Part shown: in pieces, positions 30,695 to 37,470 of the stretch
Numbering within the stretch: the stretch's first letter is position 1
Layout of the letters: every line of letters starts with the position of its first letter
NCBI GenBank assembly: GCA_045863335.1
Contig: BTVY01000002.1
Location: 192,562 to 256,561, forward strand
DNA: 64,000 nt
Direction of reading: 5' to 3'
From: Candidatus Hydrogenedentota bacterium
Lineage (GTDB): Bacteria; Hydrogenedentota; Hydrogenedentia; Hydrogenedentales; SLHB01
Translations under genes and position numbers: made by a program
Notes under the pieces: model-generated
What the model was told of the DNA's origin: nothing
Database searches by the model: none
Seen by the model: the letters and a program-made list of their open reading frames with translations, nothing else

Positions 30695-31480
30695 CTACAA
30701 TCCCAGATCGTCCATCGCCTGTTCTTGACGCTGGGTCTGCTGCGATCCGATATCCCGGGCGCCGCCGCGCGCGCGGCTGCCCGCGGCGCTCGAACCCGCA
30801 CTGCTCATGCTATTGAGTTCATTCTGAATGCCGATGCCGGTCATGGTTTCACCCATGAGTCCCCCGCCTCCAACACCCGGCTGTCGCGTGCCGGTTTGCG
30901 CGGTCTGCCCGCCGTAAGGCGCAACCTGATTGGGCGACTGACCCTGGGGTTCGTAGAGCGCGCCGGTCTGCGGGTCGTAAATAAACGGCATCCCGTTGTT
31001 CGCCTTCGGAACTTCTTTCAAATAAGTTGGTGCCAGTTGGTCCAGCGAAGTCGGATAGTATCCCGTCGCCATTCCATACTGATTGATGGCGCCACGGATT
31101 CGCGCCATCTTGTCGGTGTTGGATTCCTGTGAACGTGCCGGCTGCGGCGCAACAGGTCCGTCGAGCAGCACTTTACCAGTGGATGGATCATACCCGTAGG
31201 GGCGACCATCGGGCTGCGTCGGCACCTGGGTGAAGTACTCGGGTACAAGTGCCTGCAATGACGCGGGGTACTCGCCATGTTCCGCGGCGTAGGCCTGGAT
31301 TGCGTGATTGATTTCGATGTCCGAGGTCGTTTGCTGGGCGTTTTCCAACTGCCGCTGCAGGGTACCGAGCTGTTCGGCTTGCAGTTCGCTCTGAATCGCC
31401 GTCGACATCAGCATGTCGAGCATACAACCGGTCGTCATGAGCGGAACGAGGCTCAATACGATGAGTTTGAAGTGTCGCAT
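30695..31480 (-). CDS. Putative lipoprotein with two tandem GspG/pilin-head-like repeats
   Basis: Lipobox-like MTTG|C; twice AI..Y....G.YP.SL..L.P.Y...VP....G.P..YDP.TG; AGGAGG RBS. Confidence 0.7.
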   Translation of the reverse strand: MRHFKLIVLSLVPLMTTGCMLDMLMSTAIQSELQAEQLGTLQRQLENAQQTTSDIEINHAIQAYAAEHGEYPASLQALVPEYFTQVPTQPDGRPYGYDPSTGKVLLDGPVAPQPARSQESNTDKMARIRGAINQYGMATGYYPTSLDQLAPTYLKEVPKANNGMPFIYDPQTGALYEPQGQSPNQVAPYGGQTAQTGTRQPGVGGGGLMGETMTGIGIQNELNSMSSAGSSAAGSRARGGARDIGSQQTQRQEQAMDDLGL

Positions 31481-31648: not shown

Positions 31649-33034
31649 TTACAGGTTGTAACCCGCTTCTTCGTGCAGACTGATATCGAGACCCTGGGTC
31701 TCCTGCTGTTCACTCACGCGAAGCCCAACCACGACATCCACTATCTTGAGCAGGATGAAGCTGAGCACGCCACAGTAGACGATGGTCACCAGCGCGCCCT
31801 TGACCTGCTGGATGAACTGCGCACCGATGCTGATCTCTTCCCAGCCGCCGAGACTGGTCGAGGCGAAGACACCGGTCAACAGCGCGCCCACAAGGCCGCC
31901 GATACCGTGCACGCCGAATGCGTCCAGGGAGTCGTCATAGCCCAGCGCGCGCTTCAGGGACGTGGCACCGAGGAAACAGATGCCGCCGGACGCGAGCCCG
32001 ATGACCAGCGCGCCCATGGGGCCAACGGTGCCAGATGCAGGGGTGATCGCAACCAGGCCGGCAACGGCGCCCGTCACGGTACCAAGGGCGCTGGGTTTGC
32101 CATGTTTGCCCCATTCGATGAACATCCATGCCAGAGCCGCGGCGGCGGTCGCAATCTGCGTCACGAGCATGGCCATACCCGCGGAACCGTTCGCGGCAAC
32201 AGCACTGCCGGCATTGAATCCGAACCAGCCGACCCACAGCATCCCCGCCCCGGTGACCGTCATCGTGAGGTTATGCGGGGGCATGGGCGTCGTGGGATAA
32301 CCGCGGCGTTTGCCTACCAGGATGGCGGCGATCAGGGCCGCAACACCCGCATTGATGTGTACGACCGTGCCGCCGGCAAAGTCGAGCACGCCCCAGAGGT
32401 CGCCCATGAGCGAACCGCCGCCGGACCACACCATGTGGCACACGGGCGCGTAGACGAAGGTGAACCATAGCGCGGTGAACAAGAGCACCGCGGAAAACTT
32501 CATGCGTTCCGCGAACGCGCCCGCGATCAGCGCCGGGGTGATGATTGCGAAGGTCAACTGGAAACACACGAAGACGGACAGGGGGATCGTGCCGGACAGC
32601 TCGTCCGGGGATACGCCTTTCAGGAAGAGATAGGAGAACCCGCCCACGAAGGATCGCAGATTCAATACCCCCTCCTCCATACCCGTCGTATCAAATGCGA
32701 GACTGTACCCGTAAATGACCCACAGAATTGTCACCAACGCCGTGATCGCGAAACATTGCATCAGGACGGACAGCACGTTCCGGGTTCGCACCAATCCACC
32801 GTAGAACAACGACAGTCCGGGGATCGTCATGAACAAGACCAATGCCGTAGCCGTCAGCATCCACGCGGTATCGCCCGTGTCCAGTACCGGCGCTTCCTCC
32901 ACGACCTCCACGGCCGGCACCGCTTCTTCCTGCGCGACCGAAGTCAACACAGGGACGCACAGGAACGCAAGAAGCAGCGCGATGCGCAGGTATGGTGTGG
33001 CTGCCGCCTCACTTACTCTTCCAAACAAACCCAT
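31649..33034 (-). CDS. amt: Ammonium transporter
   Basis: FYGGLVR, FQLTFAIIT, DFAGGTVVH, LWVGWFGFNAGS, DDSLDAFGVHG; start at 33034 after AGAGGAG. Confidence 0.95.
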   Translation of the reverse strand: MGLFGRVSEAAATPYLRIALLLAFLCVPVLTSVAQEEAVPAVEVVEEAPVLDTGDTAWMLTATALVLFMTIPGLSLFYGGLVRTRNVLSVLMQCFAITALVTILWVIYGYSLAFDTTGMEEGVLNLRSFVGGFSYLFLKGVSPDELSGTIPLSVFVCFQLTFAIITPALIAGAFAERMKFSAVLLFTALWFTFVYAPVCHMVWSGGGSLMGDLWGVLDFAGGTVVHINAGVAALIAAILVGKRRGYPTTPMPPHNLTMTVTGAGMLWVGWFGFNAGSAVAANGSAGMAMLVTQIATAAAALAWMFIEWGKHGKPSALGTVTGAVAGLVAITPASGTVGPMGALVIGLASGGICFLGATSLKRALGYDDSLDAFGVHGIGGLVGALLTGVFASTSLGGWEEISIGAQFIQQVKGALVTIVYCGVLSFILLKIVDVVVGLRVSEQQETQGLDISLHEEAGYNL

Positions 33035-33141
33035 TACCCGATCTCCTCTTTCGTGCGGTATCGAGCGCTGCCGCGCCCGGAACTCCCTTTCAACCGGCTC
33101 ACTCCGTGTTCGATAACACTGGGCCGAGCACCAACCAACCA

Positions 33142-33525
<384 letters not shown>

Positions 33526-33586
33526 CTAGATTACTTACACTAGATTCAGCGCTATCGAAACCCGTGCACGTGTCGATATGGGCAAG

Positions 33587-33603
33587 AGCAAACCGTATGC
33601 CAA
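33587..33603 (-). promoter_or_regulatory. Putative sigma54 promoter of glnK-amt
   Basis: Minus strand TTGGCATACGGTTTGCT (GG-N10-GC), about 100 nt upstream of glnK. Confidence 0.75.
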
Positions 33604-34002
33604 CTGGATTCCGGCATACATCCCGGCCCGGCAGCGGGAACCCTCCGATCCCCATGTAAGGAACGTTCCTGTAGACGCTTACGACGGTTGAACCGATAAA
33701 TAATACGCCCACGAACTCCGGGAATACCTGATCGACACCCAGGTGACACGCCGAGACAAAACATACATTTTGGTAATTCACACCGCAGAGGTTTCTACCA
33801 TCCGGTATCTTTCCTTGCCATTTGGGACGGCCAAGAAAGGTCCGACTCTGGTTTAGCGGATTTCTGGACCAACCGCGCTGAATCCTCGATATCCGGGAAA
33901 AACTTAACCACTGCTACGGGTGCGAAGCATCCCATTCGTGCGGCATAACCAAGCGACGAAGCGTAGCGATGACCCAGAATACGCAGCGGAATTAGAAGCG
34001 AG

Positions 34003-34031
34003 TTGACACTGATGACTACGATCTGTATACT
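34003..34031 (+). promoter_or_regulatory. Near-consensus sigma70 promoter
   Basis: TTGACA-N17-TATACT. Confidence 0.75.
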
Positions 34032-34106
34032 GTTGGCGATCGATAGAGTTAGAACGGATTGCACATCTCACGCAGTTGGTATGGGTCAAGGGGTACCGTT
34101 GGGTCG

Positions 34107-34712
34107 ATGACAGCCCAGAAACGGGAAAACGCATTGAGCGTCGCGTTGGCGACCCTGTTGGGGTCCAAAGCGCGTGCCGCGATTCTTCGGCTCTTCCTGG
34201 CCGACCCGACTCGGGCCTACTACCAGCGACAGATTGAGGCGGCAACCGGGCTTCCTATCCGGGCGGTCCAACGCGAATTGGAACGTCTCCAGTCAATTGA
34301 ATTCCTCTATCGGCATACGGAAGGGAACCGGACCTACTACCAGGTTGACATGTTGTTCCCCCTGTTTCAGGAACTGCGCGCCCTCGTATTGAAGGCGGCA
34401 AGCCCGCTGGACCGACTCCGGGGAGCCGTGGCGGTCAACCCGAGTGTTTTGATCGCGCTGCTCGACGAGGACGCAAACCAAGTGCTCCTCGTGACCACGG
34501 GGCCCGAAGCACCGCCGATACCGCCCATGGAACCGTACGCCATTGAAACCATGTCGCGCGAAGCGTTCGCCAGGGAATTGGCGGAGCGCTCCGCGCGTAT
34601 TGATAGCCTGCTCACACGGAGCGTGGATTTGCTCGGAAGAAGGGAAGACGTCGTCTGGCGTCGGATCGAAGCCGCAGGCTATTCGATCCAGAAAGGGAAA
34701 GGTGTGGCTTAA
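34107..34712 (+). CDS. Winged-helix protein with degenerate minimal nucleotidyltransferase-like C-terminal domain
   Basis: LLGSKARAAILRLFL..YYQRQI..VQRELERL..GNRTYYQ..PLFQELRALVLK is typical of wHTH-MNT proteins; the GS/DxD motif is absent. Confidence 0.7.
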   Translation: MTAQKRENALSVALATLLGSKARAAILRLFLADPTRAYYQRQIEAATGLPIRAVQRELERLQSIEFLYRHTEGNRTYYQVDMLFPLFQELRALVLKAASPLDRLRGAVAVNPSVLIALLDEDANQVLLVTTGPEAPPIPPMEPYAIETMSREAFARELAERSARIDSLLTRSVDLLGRREDVVWRRIEAAGYSIQKGKGVA

Positions 34713-34713
34713 C

Positions 34714-36144
34714 ATGCGGACAACCAGCGCAATTCAGCGGTTGTGTGAATCGTGGTGGGAGAAGCTCGCGGATTCCACGCGGGAAGACCAGCACCTGTAC
34801 GCGGAGAAATTCCTCGCGCTCCTCGGATGGAACGAGTCCGACGAACTCGAGCCGGCCGCGGTCCCGGGCCATCCCACGACCCTGGCCTATATCATCCGGT
34901 CGGGCGAACAGACGAGCATGGTCGCGTACTTCGTGCTGCCCGGGGTGCTGGAACCGCCCAGCAACGCGATCAAGCGAAGCCTGGACTTCTGCCCCATCAC
35001 CCGCGCCCTCGTCGACATGAACCGCGTCTTCGGCGCGCCCTACGCTTATGTGACCGACTTGTTCCGATCCTACTTGTATGATGCCAAGACCGACGAACTG
35101 CTGTTGGTGGCCGATACGCCCGCGGCGTTCACGTCCGAGTTTGGGGACGTTCTGCTGCGATCGAACGTGGAAGCGGGCTCGCTGGACGACGTGCGGCGGC
35201 AACCCCGCAGCTATGTGGCGCGGCAATTGCGCGAATGGATTCATCGCTGGACCGAAACCCTGATGAGTGAGTGGCGGGCGCCGGAAGAGGCTGCCTGGCT
35301 CGCCATGGACCGTATGGTAACCCTGCGGTTTCTGGCCGAGCACGACATCCTTCGGAGGCCCGGCGCCTCGCCCAACCCCATCAAACGCCGTCTCACCCCG
35401 CCGCCCAGCGGGTCGGAGGAAGGCTGCGGTCATGCGTTAACGTCACTATGCAAAGACATATTTGAGCAGTGGGGCGCGGGCCTCTTCGCACCGCAGCCTC
35501 CGGTAGAGGCGATCCTCGCGCAGGACGCGGTTGCGGGTCCGCTCGTCAACGAGTTGGCCCTCCAGTCGCGCGGCAAGTTCAGTCTCGCCACGGTGCTCGA
35601 AAGCTTCAACTACGGCGACGCGGCGGAGAAGGCGCGCGTTCGCATGATTCCCGAGGATAACGAGGAACGGCAGGCGTACCTCGCGCAACAAACCTGCGCG
35701 ACCATCGACGAGGCGCGCATTGAACTCGATCTTGCCGATGAAGGTTACCGCGCGATCTTCCGCTGGTTCGATCAGTTGGTCGAACTGTACGCCCGGCTCG
35801 GCGCAGAGTTCGAAGCCGCCACGCAGGCGGAACAGACCGGTGCTTCAGACCTGGACCTATTCGATTGGTCGGAGATCAATGCGAAACGGCCCAGCGCCTT
35901 CAGCGATGGACTCCGCCACGCCATCGAGCAAGGCCTGACGATCTACTGCAGTTCGCCGCGCCAATTCCGCACCGCGCGGTTGATCCTGTACTTGCACCTC
36001 GCCACGCGCTACGAACACGGCGATGCCCGATTCGAGATATTCCCCACCGTGGAGACCGCGCTTCAACGCCGTCCTCACATGCTCGATTCCGACCGGCGCC
36101 GCATCTTCCAGGGTTCGTCCGAAGACGAGTGGGAAGTGATCTAG
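34714..36144 (+). CDS. Hypothetical protein resembling a catalytically degenerate, truncated type IIG (Eco57I-like) restriction-modification enzyme
   Basis: Collinear motifs FLALLGW, YVTDLFRSYLYD, VEAGSLD, MDRMVTLRFL, WGAGLF; no ExK, DPACGSG or NPPY. Confidence 0.55.
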   Translation: MRTTSAIQRLCESWWEKLADSTREDQHLYAEKFLALLGWNESDELEPAAVPGHPTTLAYIIRSGEQTSMVAYFVLPGVLEPPSNAIKRSLDFCPITRALVDMNRVFGAPYAYVTDLFRSYLYDAKTDELLLVADTPAAFTSEFGDVLLRSNVEAGSLDDVRRQPRSYVARQLREWIHRWTETLMSEWRAPEEAAWLAMDRMVTLRFLAEHDILRRPGASPNPIKRRLTPPPSGSEEGCGHALTSLCKDIFEQWGAGLFAPQPPVEAILAQDAVAGPLVNELALQSRGKFSLATVLESFNYGDAAEKARVRMIPEDNEERQAYLAQQTCATIDEARIELDLADEGYRAIFRWFDQLVELYARLGAEFEAATQAEQTGASDLDLFDWSEINAKRPSAFSDGLRHAIEQGLTIYCSSPRQFRTARLILYLHLATRYEHGDARFEIFPTVETALQRRPHMLDSDRRRIFQGSSEDEWEVI

Positions 36145-36324
36145 CAGGATACGCACTTACCATAGCGTTAACCTTCCGGCGCTGACTTGACTCAGCCCTC
36201 GTTTACGCATAGCGTAACGCAGGGGACAGACCGGCGTTTCCCGCCGGTTCCGGGTGCGGCCACGTGTCCAAGGCAGTCTACCCTTCCCCCATGACCGGCT
36301 ACAGAGATAAACAGAGGGAGACGT

Positions 36325-37470
36325 ATGACCATGAAACCATTCGGAATCGCATTTCTCGCGTTCGCGTTAATCGCGCCCATCGTTTCGGCGCAAGGTGCGG
36401 GGTTGGACCAGCTTTACCAGCTCAACGACGCACAATCCCGCTCCATTAGCCCGGAGAACTTCACGGGCGAAAAGGGCAAGGGCGGCATGGCGACCCTGGA
36501 AGAGGGCACCGCAGCGAAGGCCGCGCGCGAACTCGGCCAGGGCTGGAAGGTCAACCCGTACGTGCACATCAAGCCGGGTGAAACATTCACGATGGGCGAG
36601 ATCGACGGCTCCGGGATCATTCGTCATATCTGGATGACGCCCGTCGGCGATTACCGGCTCATGATCTTTCGCATCTATTGGGACGATGAAGAAGCGGCCT
36701 CGGTTGAAGTGCCCGTGGGCGACTTCTTCGCAGCCGGTTGGGGCATCGGCAACGAGCCGCAGATTGCCTCGCTGGCCGTGTGTGTGAATCCCCGCAGCGG
36801 ATTCAACTCGTACTGGAAGATGCCGTTCCGCAAGGGCGCGAAGATCACCATGGAGAACCTGGGCGAGAAACAGGCTACGGTCTACTACCAGATCGATTAC
36901 TCGCTCGAAGACGTGGCGAAAGACACCCCCTACTTCCACGCCCAGTTCCGCCGCACCAATCCGCTCCCGTACAAGGAAGTGTTCACCATCGTCGATGGCA
37001 TCAAGGGCAAGGGCCAATACGTGGGCACCTACCTCGCCCACGGCGCAAACAGCCCGGGCTGGTGGGGCGAAGGCGAAATCAAGTTCTTCATCGACGGTGA
37101 CGGCGAGTTCCCCACCATCTGCGGCACCGGCGAGGAAGATTACTTCTGCGGCTCCTACGGCTATGAGGAACAAGAAGAAAACGGCAAATACACCTACACC
37201 AGTTTCAGCAGCCCCTACACGGGCTTCTACCACGTGCCCTTCGAGGGCGAGCAACGCCGCTTCGGCCAGTACCGCTGGCACATCACCGATCCCGTCCGAT
37301 TCGATCAGGATCTGAGGATCACGATCCAGGCCTTGGGTTGGCAGAGCGAAGGCCGGTACCTGCCCTTGCAGGACGACCTGGCCGCGGTCTCCTACTGGTA
37401 CCAGATGGAGCCGCACGCGCCCTTCCCCGCCCTGCCGGCGAAAGAAGCGCTGGTGATTACGAACGAGTGA
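36325..37470 (+). CDS. DUF2961 / GH172-like glycoside hydrolase
   Basis: SRSISPENFTGEKGKGG, IRHIWMT, VPVGDFF, NSYWKMPF, WWGEGEIKFFIDG, GTGEEDYF. Confidence 0.9.
   Translation: MTMKPFGIAFLAFALIAPIVSAQGAGLDQLYQLNDAQSRSISPENFTGEKGKGGMATLEEGTAAKAARELGQGWKVNPYVHIKPGETFTMGEIDGSGIIRHIWMTPVGDYRLMIFRIYWDDEEAASVEVPVGDFFAAGWGIGNEPQIASLAVCVNPRSGFNSYWKMPFRKGAKITMENLGEKQATVYYQIDYSLEDVAKDTPYFHAQFRRTNPLPYKEVFTIVDGIKGKGQYVGTYLAHGANSPGWWGEGEIKFFIDGDGEFPTICGTGEEDYFCGSYGYEEQEENGKYTYTSFSSPYTGFYHVPFEGEQRRFGQYRWHITDPVRFDQDLRITIQALGWQSEGRYLPLQDDLAAVSYWYQMEPHAPFPALPAKEALVITNE

Follow-up and report, generated by a model that had tools for sequence, protein, structure and literature searches.

Restriction-modification (RM) and toxin-antitoxin (TA) genes are commonly regarded as defence or selfish elements that are mobile and turn over fast. 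In the present work, we describe a two-gene operon (gene 1 and gene 2) within a 64,000-nucleotide stretch of the genome of a Candidatus Hydrogenedentota bacterium (contig BTVY01000002.1, positions 192,562 to 256,561; below, the window). In this operon, derivatives of an RM enzyme and of a TA antitoxin occur as fixed genes, stripped of their catalytic motifs and under strong purifying selection across one uncultivated bacterial order, and gene 2 extends into a second phylum.

The described enzymes that resemble gene 2 are those of type IIG/IIL (the Eco57I family, MmeI, BpuSI and DrdV), with which it shares the N-terminal order of a PD-(D/E)xK fold, a helical spacer and the start of a gamma-class methyltransferase. 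These enzymes comprise 950-1300 amino acids including the catalytic motifs and a target-recognition domain (TRD), whereas gene 2 encodes about 476 amino acids without them and is near-universal, vertically inherited and not mobile. The helical N-terminal domain and methyltransferase start of PglX/BrxX from the bacteriophage exclusion (BREX) systems superpose on gene 2 as well. In the aligned part of PglX, however, there is no nuclease-like N-terminal domain as in gene 2, and PglX is an active methyltransferase with a TRD and the partners BrxA/B/C/L/Z, none of which is encoded near our operon. A further likeness exists to the inactive restriction endonuclease (REase)-fold sensor domains of BrxHII and RapA-type helicases, in which a degenerate PD-(D/E)xK fold is retained under selection and is proposed to bind rather than to cut. 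According to the part of the source text available (PMC12839542), those domains are fused to helicases, reside inside defence systems and evolve fast, whereas gene 2 is slowly evolving, stands alone and carries a methyltransferase relic.

Gene 1 resembles the antitoxins of the wHTH-MNT family (PDC-M05A; MntA/HepT type) in its length of about 200 amino acids, its winged helix-turn-helix (wHTH), the linker helices, the first nucleotidyltransferase strand, a putatively nucleotidyltransferase-like C-terminal half and its first position in a two-gene operon. It differs from them by a shortened GS...DxD segment with hydrophobic residues (L127, V129) at the aligned positions and by a partner that is not a HEPN protein. 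With the ArsR/SmtB autorepressors it shares the fold of residues 1-104 and the proposed dimer on a dyad over its own promoter, whereas the additional, putatively nucleotidyltransferase-like C-terminal domain sets it apart, as does a score of 19.8 bits against a cutoff of 55 with the NCBIfam ArsR model NF033788. In open-access papers and preprints, supplements aside, we found no core gene described as a truncated and inactive homologue of type IIG enzymes, and no inactive wHTH-MNT protein paired with such a homologue, and the available part of PMC8987985 names no RM-derived exaptation. The parts come from known superfamilies, and the architecture of the pair is without a description found in the open-access literature.

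Gene 2 is homologous to the N-terminal half of type IIG/IIL enzymes, comprising a nuclease-like domain, a helical domain and the first three strands of a methyltransferase. Curated models do not reveal this relationship: scans of gene 2 against Pfam, NCBIfam and PADLOC gave no match even at E ≤ 10, except to the unrelated DUF7528 (E 0.16), so that gene 2 fails the models Eco57I, N6_Mtase, MmeI_N/hel/Mtase and HSDR_N. Sequence searches of the PDB with both proteins and with the gene 2 profile returned nothing meaningful. An AlphaFold2 model of gene 2 built from 39 orthologues (predicted local distance difference test score, pLDDT, 87; predicted template-modelling score, pTM, 0.86) produced weak top rows in Foldseek (E 4e-3 and above), namely BpuSI, DrdV, PglX/BrxX, BsaXI and MmeI, and Foldseek alone gave no match at E ≤ 0.001 for the model of either gene. 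The relationships became clear only via VIA-align and profile comparisons. When 48,161 representative chains were searched with the gene 2 model, all 11 chains with Z ≥ 8 were RM components.

Domain by domain, residues 18-162 of gene 2 match the HsdR nuclease domain 3h1t (Z 8.8-9.0, root-mean-square deviation (rmsd) 3.6, 112-113 residues aligned) and residues 1-162 match EcoR124I HsdR (Z 7.3-7.7). Together with the profile alignment to the HSDR_N/MmeI_N N-termini, the 3h1t match identifies the N-terminal PD-(D/E)xK fold known from type IIG/IIL enzymes. The helical domain corresponds to residues 6-117 of M.EcoKI, which align with residues 170-286 (Z 8.5, rmsd 3.0, 107 aligned), and to PglX, whose aligned range begins at its residue 1 against residue 164 of the gene 2 model. 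Over both the helical and the methyltransferase part, model residues 124-476 match residues 156-605 of MmeI (Z 13.8, 269 aligned, rmsd 4.3); PglX/BrxX chains reach Z 10.2-11.8, the best of them 11.1-11.8 with 255-262 residues aligned. CamA matches residues 296-459 (Z 7.7-8.8).

Profile comparisons lead to the same enzymes. The gene 2 family profile, searched against 1.84 billion representatives, reached proteins of 950-1300 amino acids with E 8e-10 to 1e-3 over query positions 27-292, and all of those checked (6/6) carry Pfam Eco57I, N6_Mtase, TaqI_C and HSDR_N/MmeI_N domains. Aligning the gene 2 family with 16 Eco57I-type enzymes by hhalign gave Prob 98.6 and E 1.3e-15 over 398 columns, with residues 26-432 paired to consensus positions 33-504 of 1174. 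Among the paired motifs are LGW in both families, TDLFRSYLYD with TNFERLxLFNA, DRMVTLRF with DRLIIIRY and RTARLILYLHL with AAEIASVNL. The motif pairings between gene 2 and Eco57I-like enzymes that an initial annotation of the window had proposed are essentially correct by this alignment. Neighbours of gene 2 in the ESM Atlas are MmeI_N and MmeI_hel clusters, which we regard as a lead only.

Within this conserved framework, the residues required for both enzymatic activities have been replaced. In the hhalign alignment, the nuclease D falls on a variable column, the E on P76 and the K on a gap, the family consensus at this place being AAxFVMPG; a catalytic D...(D/E)xK set is therefore not present in gene 2. 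The S-adenosylmethionine (SAM)-binding motif I, DPACGSG, pairs with DLADEGY (DLxDEGY in the family), GIYYTP pairs with MIP, and the motif II acid pairs with S/P. The alignment stops at position 504/1174 of the type IIG consensus, before GNPPY, so motif IV is missing. Just three strands follow residue 296 in the model, and with a chain that stops at residue 476 no seven-stranded methyltransferase fold is left. A TaqI_C-type target-recognition region, located at about 750-990 in the verified enzymes, is likewise not part of the 476 amino acids of gene 2, and the orthologues have a similar length (456-516 amino acids). The loss of PD..ExK and DPACGSG and the end of the protein before NPPY and the target-recognition domain, as proposed initially, are borne out by alignment and length.

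Gene 1 combines a regulator-like with a probably enzyme-derived half. Its model (pLDDT 91.5) matches CzrA (Z 13.3) and SmtB (Z 12.4) over residues 1-104, establishing the wHTH typical of wHTH-MNT antitoxins, and the recognition-helix residues are invariant in 32 sequences. The PADLOC model PDC-M05A (PDLC04368) matches gene 1 with E 5.4e-19, only across residues 13-109, whereas Pfam and NCBIfam scans gave sub-threshold wHTH hints only. Residues 99-192 align with the nucleotidyltransferase-like structure 3c18_A (92 residues, rmsd 3.0), in one row at rank 50 of a list filled with wHTH matches.

The catalytic segment can be compared directly with relatives that kept it. Related genomes hold six true wHTH-MNT paralogues of about 196-220 amino acids, all of which carry FGS...SDxD and have a HEPN-like neighbour of about 146 amino acids; two of the six were scanned and gave Polbeta/NTP_transf_2 Pfam matches above cutoff, whereas the Pfam scan of gene 1 found neither. 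By hhalign, the gene 1 family pairs with these paralogues with Prob 99.7 and E 1.2e-26, residues 10-120 corresponding to 2-109 and ending exactly at the GS motif. Where the paralogues read AFVFGSIANG...SDxDLMV, gene 1 reads IALLDEDANQVLLV (residues 116-129); L127 and V129 are invariant in 32 sequences, no carboxylate is conserved, and G-S...D-x-D is absent. These results agree with the first description of gene 1 as the wHTH of a wHTH-MNT protein without the (F/Y)GS..DxD segment, and with that of gene 2; structural and profile matches to the expected RM and MNT folds and families were obtained, the MNT fold of gene 1 by a single structural row. The gene downstream of gene 1, i.e. gene 2, shows no HEPN or PDC-M05B match in Pfam and PADLOC. 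PDC-M05 is described as a TA-like combination of a nucleotidyltransferase and a HEPN protein with unconfirmed antiviral role (PMC12988326, in the part of the text available). The paralogue pairs are TA modules of this type and the likely source family of gene 1. One of the neighbours of about 146 amino acids was scanned and matched HEPN_SAV_6107 at E 3e-5, below cutoff. In these paralogue loci of Hydrogenedentota (L066 753-1340, minus strand; L067 1004-2003, plus strand; L070 959-2024, plus strand; L068, L069 and L071), the HEPN-like gene follows the wHTH-MNT gene and overlaps it.

Next, we consider how widely the pair is distributed. Gene 2 was found in 130/135 sampled genomes of the phylum (130/133 in the same order, 0/2 outside it), mostly with one match per genome. 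A profile search of the five negative genomes returned nothing, an empty answer being weak proof of absence, and two of them are only 82% and 63% complete (G017, G080). Named homologues are hypothetical proteins of "Candidatus Hydrogenedentes" or of an unclassified "bacterium", with the exception of one "Nitrospiraceae bacterium". Orthologues of gene 1 were detected in 111 genomes and lie directly upstream of gene 2 on the same strand in 110 of them, so that the pair is conserved together, one of the checks suggested initially; in the sole exception both genes are at contig ends. The gap between the aligned ends of the two genes measures 2-265 nt (median 17). In 19 genomes gene 2 is present and gene 1 unmatched. 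At ten inspected loci of this kind, gene 2 has other neighbours and no gene 1 upstream, and the respective genomes contain no gene 1 match.

Both genes are under purifying selection. Over nine pairs, the ratio of nonsynonymous to synonymous substitution rates (dN/dS; Nei-Gojobori) ranges from 0.016 to 0.138 in gene 2, which at its lowest value is among the most constrained genes to be expected, and from 0.091 to 0.157 in gene 1, for which two pairs were saturated. In two pairs with dS of about 0.25-0.3, gene 2 shows 0.016 and 0.047 and gene 1 shows 0.106 and 0.119. All these values are far from 1, the value that would have indicated decay, and ordinary decay is excluded by dN/dS together with intact frames in about 130 genomes. 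In a tree of 46 gene 2 sequences, the family labels change 10 times (minimum 9; shuffled mean 19.3; 0/200 shuffles as low), family f3 forms one clade (support 99) and f7 is nested among f1. The tree covers 46 of the 54 gene 2 loci of the order, leaving out three close same-genus relatives and five loci with partial or fragmented gene 2; as related genomes have common labels, it shows clustering and is not proof of strict vertical descent. A mobile origin was considered and rejected, since no relative was found among IMG/VR viral contigs, PLSDB plasmids and GenBank phages.

The gene 2 profile also reaches a wider set of proteins of 430-470 amino acids (E 1e-24 to 1e-3), of which none of four scanned (0/4) matches Pfam. 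They keep LGW, Y.L..D....LYD, RELxxWxxLW, LLSxxKFS, QxDLF and a C-terminal FPxL, and are without the ESFNYGDAAEKARVRMIPE and DEGYR motifs of the core family. One subgroup, very divergent from gene 2, maps to 11 loci, nine of which are titled Candidatus Sumerlaeota or Sumerlaeia and two "bacterium" only, and its profile finds one locus in 59/75 genomes of a sample of that phylum. The hhalign comparison of this subgroup with the core family extends from end to end (Prob 99.4, E 1e-21), which means that the truncation is common to both. No gene 1 homologue was found at the 11 loci. Gene 2 works without gene 1. In the order, no fewer than 10 verified genomes have it by itself, as do the Sumerlaeota with their relatives of gene 2. 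At two Sumerlaeota loci (L044 299-3415, L045 319-3444), the gene 2 relative follows a DnaE-like open reading frame (ORF) of about 1040 amino acids with an N-terminus that looks PHP-domain-like by eye; other loci differ.

Aligning the regions upstream of gene 1 revealed an operator-like motif, GACTAC-N5-GTA(T/G)(A/T)C, which in the window lies 93 nt before the ATG. It is present with at most one mismatch in 22/34 upstream regions and exactly in 16/34, whereas 300 dinucleotide shuffles averaged 0.04 and never exceeded 1. The 34 regions were obtained after dropping one locus with 4 nt upstream and leaving out six others. Motif-bearing loci belong to families f1, f3, f6, f7 and f10 and, via a copy at the start codon, f12 (at least six families), with flanks that range from GC-rich to AT-rich. 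Several lineages have a better palindrome, GACTAC-N5-(A/G)TAGTC, over the start codon of gene 1, which also explains the conserved N-terminal peptide MTxxxSQ. In six loci and others (L018, L019, L020, L023, L054, L063), the form (AT)GACTAC-N5-(A/G)TAGTC(AA) was seen in the first 25 nt or so of gene 1, where it may drive the MT...SQ conservation. In the 6.75-Mb genome, the strict motif occurs four times (2.1 expected); only the gene 1 copy is intergenic, and the other three lie inside long ORFs. This genome-wide scan with the strict motif showed no regulon of gene 1. Among ten loci without gene 1, the motif was found in none (0/10) within 400 nt upstream of gene 2, and three keep a relic with two mismatches. 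In these three (L034-L036), a TTGACA-type promoter with the relic GACCAC-AAAAT-GTATAT directly precedes gene 2 at a distance of about 100 nt, an arrangement that a clean deletion of gene 1 with retention of its promoter would leave behind. A dimeric autorepressor, with gene 1 as the candidate, would suit the 6-5-6 dyad, the basic wHTH and the invariant recognition helix.

The reading towards which we lean, with modest confidence, is that of a domesticated pseudoenzyme pair: gene 1 would repress its own operon, and gene 2 would be an acidic, non-catalytic cellular factor outside defence, vertically inherited and close to single-copy. It builds on what was computed, i.e. homology, motif loss, conservation, linkage, purifying selection and motif conservation; from there we infer that gene 1 binds DNA and that gene 2 lacks any catalysis, and whatever concerns the target of gene 2 is put forward in the same sense. 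Gene 2 would derive from the N-terminal half of a type IIG/IIL enzyme, of which it kept the nuclease-like, helical and partial methyltransferase folds and shed the D..ExK triad, the glycine loop that binds SAM, NPPY and the entire half devoted to DNA recognition. Gene 1 would go back to an antitoxin of MNT-HEPN (PDC-M05A) modules with wHTH and nucleotidyltransferase parts, and would have lost the catalytic carboxylates. As a dimer it might sit on the 17-bp element overlapping the -10 hexamer and, in many relatives, on the second copy over its own start codon, and in this way hold the dose of gene 2. It appears to be a later, order-specific addition that was lost in several lineages; there and in Sumerlaeota, gene 2 presumably functions without it.

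Gene 2 itself is probably a pseudoenzyme that binds protein, nucleic acid or a small ligand. For binding or sensing it may employ the inactive nuclease fold or the methyltransferase relic, and for dimerisation the HsdM-like helical domain. As far as the available part of PMC12839542 goes, inactive REase domains have been proposed as sensor modules, and the N-terminal domain of PglX is an HsdM-like dimerisation domain. A complex prediction for gene 1 and gene 2 scored 0.00, which is neutral on binding. The role as a general DNA-binding scaffold, an option of the initial annotation, fits poorly with the acidic charge of gene 2 (isoelectric point, pI, 4.95 here; family median 5.7). Its broader statement, namely that two defence-type families were co-opted as a non-catalytic module, stands by the fold and family matches, the linkage and dN/dS. 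As for the history, a tentative scenario that we would place somewhat short of probable is that an ancient RM fragment was domesticated in at least two candidate phyla (Hydrogenedentota and Sumerlaeota), and that one order then captured a dead wHTH-nucleotidyltransferase antitoxin as a private autorepressor.

If true, an RM enzyme and a TA antitoxin have both turned into non-catalytic core genes, and gene 2 represents a new protein family in which REase and methyltransferase folds serve as the basis of pseudoenzymes with adaptor or sensor roles. The pair would offer a concrete case of exaptation from defence proteins to cellular roles, and, in a phylum whose regulators are hardly known, a predicted pair of repressor and operator. 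With it come two protein families outside the coverage of Pfam and NCBIfam. For annotation it serves as a warning: gene 1 matches PDC-M05A (E 5e-19) and yet is neither a nucleotidyltransferase nor adjacent to a HEPN gene.

Several observations weigh against a domesticated, autoregulated pair. The profile did not find gene 2 in a 97%-complete genome of the same order (G061) nor in two genomes outside it (G001, G002), and gene 2 is not strictly essential. The nucleotidyltransferase fold match of gene 1 is a single row with Z 8.7. The motif overlaps the -10 hexamer, so that part of its conservation could be promoter conservation; 12/34 loci are without it at up to one mismatch, and samples from related genomes are not independent of each other. 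Both the binding of DNA by gene 1 and the role of gene 2 are putative. With respect to expression, which the initial annotation had asserted, contigs of the RNA library X1 (about 98.7% identity) span 34504-35537 and 35896-36557 as well as amt/glnK, and bins 33840-34307 have nearly no cover. As assembled contigs from one library that may contain DNA, they give no strand, starts or levels and are a weak hint of transcription at most. Finally, invariant polar residues persist at or near the relic sites of gene 2, i.e. D91, R97, D115, R118 and D123; E296, N299, E305, K306, R308 and R310; and D339, E343, G344, Y345 and R346, the latter group (the DEGYR region) being invariant in 39 sequences. Such residues would be as fitting for a new site of ligand binding or catalysis as for an interface.

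This last point leads to the idea that gene 2 has remained an enzyme or specifically binds a small molecule, the new site being formed by invariants of the nuclease-like domain (D91, D115, D123, R97, R118) or of the relic Rossmann strand (D339, E343, Y345, R346, Q417, R419, R422). The 39 sequences share about 50% identity and contain 52 invariant columns, many of them charged; dN/dS in unsaturated gene 2 pairs is 0.016-0.047, and an acidic protein is unlike a plain DNA binder, all of which suits such a site. However, most of the invariants, including ESFNYGDAAEKARVRMIPE and DEGYR, are not kept in the Sumerlaeota proteins and other distant relatives of the same architecture, the Rossmann fold is cut after its third strand, and no match to a family or to the sequence of a solved structure suggests an activity. 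We consider a new active or ligand site improbable. With regard to alternative catalytic residues in homologues, which had been named as a possible objection at the outset, the canonical motifs are replaced throughout the families, whereas a new site from the residues listed (D91, D115, D123, R97, R118; D339, E343, Y345, R346) keeps the same low probability.

A second explanation concerns the 17-bp motif, which could be a promoter element specific to the lineage or, in the copies over the start codon, a hairpin in the RNA that affects translation, with gene 1 regulating something else or nothing. Its right half overlaps the -10 hexamer, the start-codon copies have with GACUAC-N5-(A/G)UAGUC the potential for a stem of 6 bp, and L034-L036, which are without gene 1, keep the two-mismatch relic in what seems to be the same promoter. 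On the other hand, the GACTAC half lies in the spacer, which is unread by sigma-70, the same dyad is found at two unrelated positions (promoter and start codon) with a 6-5-6 geometry that suits a wHTH dimer, and the motif at up to one mismatch accompanies gene 1 only (22/34 vs 0/10 loci). A motif independent of gene 1 is hence unlikely in our view, and autorepression by gene 1 remains the reading we prefer.

It is also conceivable that the operon is a chromosomally fixed immune guard, in which gene 2 is a decoy that mimics the surface of type IIG enzymes or BREX PglX for phage anti-restriction proteins (Ocr-like DNA mimics) and thereby releases or alters the gene 1 repressor. Both parts do come from defence-type families, and the Ocr targets PglX/BrxX and type I methyltransferases are among the structural matches (8q56, 9ex7, 7bst, 7eew). 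A near-universal, single-copy, vertically inherited gene in a housekeeping neighbourhood and under strong purifying selection is, however, unlike the genes of an arms race; the motif has no second intergenic target in the genome, and so no effector regulon is visible; and gene 2 occurs without gene 1 in many genomes and has no PADLOC match. The decoy or sensor for anti-restriction proteins contemplated in the initial annotation accordingly fits poorly with an order-wide, slowly evolving single-copy gene, and we hold a guard function to be quite unlikely. Least of all do we expect a TA-like addiction module in which gene 2 would be the toxin and gene 1 its antitoxin and autorepressor. Gene 1 does descend from MNT antitoxins, and the operon is reminiscent of type II/VII TA loci in its regulator-first order, tight spacing and signal of autoregulation. 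However, a toxin would not be expected to persist without its antitoxin, whereas gene 2 stands by itself in no fewer than 10 genomes of the order as well as in Sumerlaeota. Moreover, gene 2 has lost the nuclease triad, gene 1 is without AMPylation residues, and each genome has one copy of gene 2 with no link to mobile elements.

The features of the operon are compiled in Table 1. The two intact ORFs, separated by 1 nt from stop to start, were read as initially described.

Table 1. Operon features in the window (positions count from the first letter of the window)
Feature	Coordinates	Strand	Basis or remark
-35 hexamer TTGACA	34003..34008	+	consensus scan and sequence reading
Operator-like GACTAC-GATCT-GTATAC, 17 bp	34014..34030	+	in promoter spacer, overlaps -10; candidate site of the gene 1 wHTH dimer
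-10 hexamer TATACT	34026..34031	+	consensus scan
Gene 1, 201 amino acids	34107..34712	+	intact ORF
ArsR/SmtB-type wHTH, basic (pI ~10), gene 1 residues 1-104	34107..34418	+	structure and PADLOC matches
Putatively nucleotidyltransferase-like alpha/beta domain without GS..DxD, very conserved C-terminal tail, gene 1 residues 105-201 and stop	34419..34712	+	3c18_A, hhalign
Gene 2, 476 amino acids	34714..36144	+	intact ORF
PD-(D/E)xK restriction-endonuclease-like fold without D..ExK, gene 2 residues 1-162	34714..35199	+	HsdR structure matches, hhalign
Helical domain, MmeI-spacer/PglX-N/HsdM-N-like, gene 2 residues 163-295	35200..35598	+	M.EcoKI and PglX structure matches
Relic N-terminal part of gamma-class N6-adenine methyltransferase, three strands, gene 2 residues 296-476 and stop	35599..36144	+	MmeI, CamA, hhalign

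The promoter TTGACA-N17-TATACT (34003-34031), already noted at the beginning, agrees with the consensus at 11/12 positions and is the sole sigma-70-like site in 33000-36500. Shuffled sequence yields 0.8 ± 0.9 such sites, and the match by itself is at chance level; its weight comes from the conservation of the embedded 17-bp motif in other genomes. The GC content at third codon positions (GC3) is 0.70 for gene 1 and 0.79 for gene 2, compared with 0.69-0.82 for 11 neighbouring ORFs, and the codon frequencies of both genes are inside the range of these neighbours, which corroborates the host-like codon usage judged by eye before.

The operon is surrounded by ordinary housekeeping genes and is not part of a defence island. 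Divergently upstream are a P-II/GlnK gene and an ammonium transporter gene, and downstream follow genes for a DUF2961 protein, a TM7S3/TM198-like membrane protein, a zinc-ribbon protein and a class-III aminotransferase. The divergent placement from glnK-amt, pointed out in the initial annotation, is true here and recurs in 16/30 loci of the window's own family (with a view limited by 1.5-kb flanks), whereas 13 loci from other genera or families have no neighbour in common except the gene 1-gene 2 pair. A functional tie to nitrogen regulation was therefore rejected, and the arrangement is regarded as local synteny inside one family.

The glnK and amt genes occupy 31652-33483 on the minus strand, with a stop/start overlap at 33142. 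A terminator-like hairpin of 10 pairs followed by a T-rich tail (33594-33620, minus strand) lies about 110 nt upstream of the glnK start and on the glnK strand; located in a 520-nt intergenic region, it may act as a leader or attenuator element or else terminate a small transcript that escaped notice. An Rfam scan of the window gave no match. The DUF2961 protein (36325-37467, plus strand), just downstream of the operon, has a signal-peptide-like N-terminus. Beyond amt, a protein of 261 amino acids (30698-31480, minus strand) without Pfam match has an N-terminal hydrophobic segment and repeated YP.SL..L.P.Y motifs.

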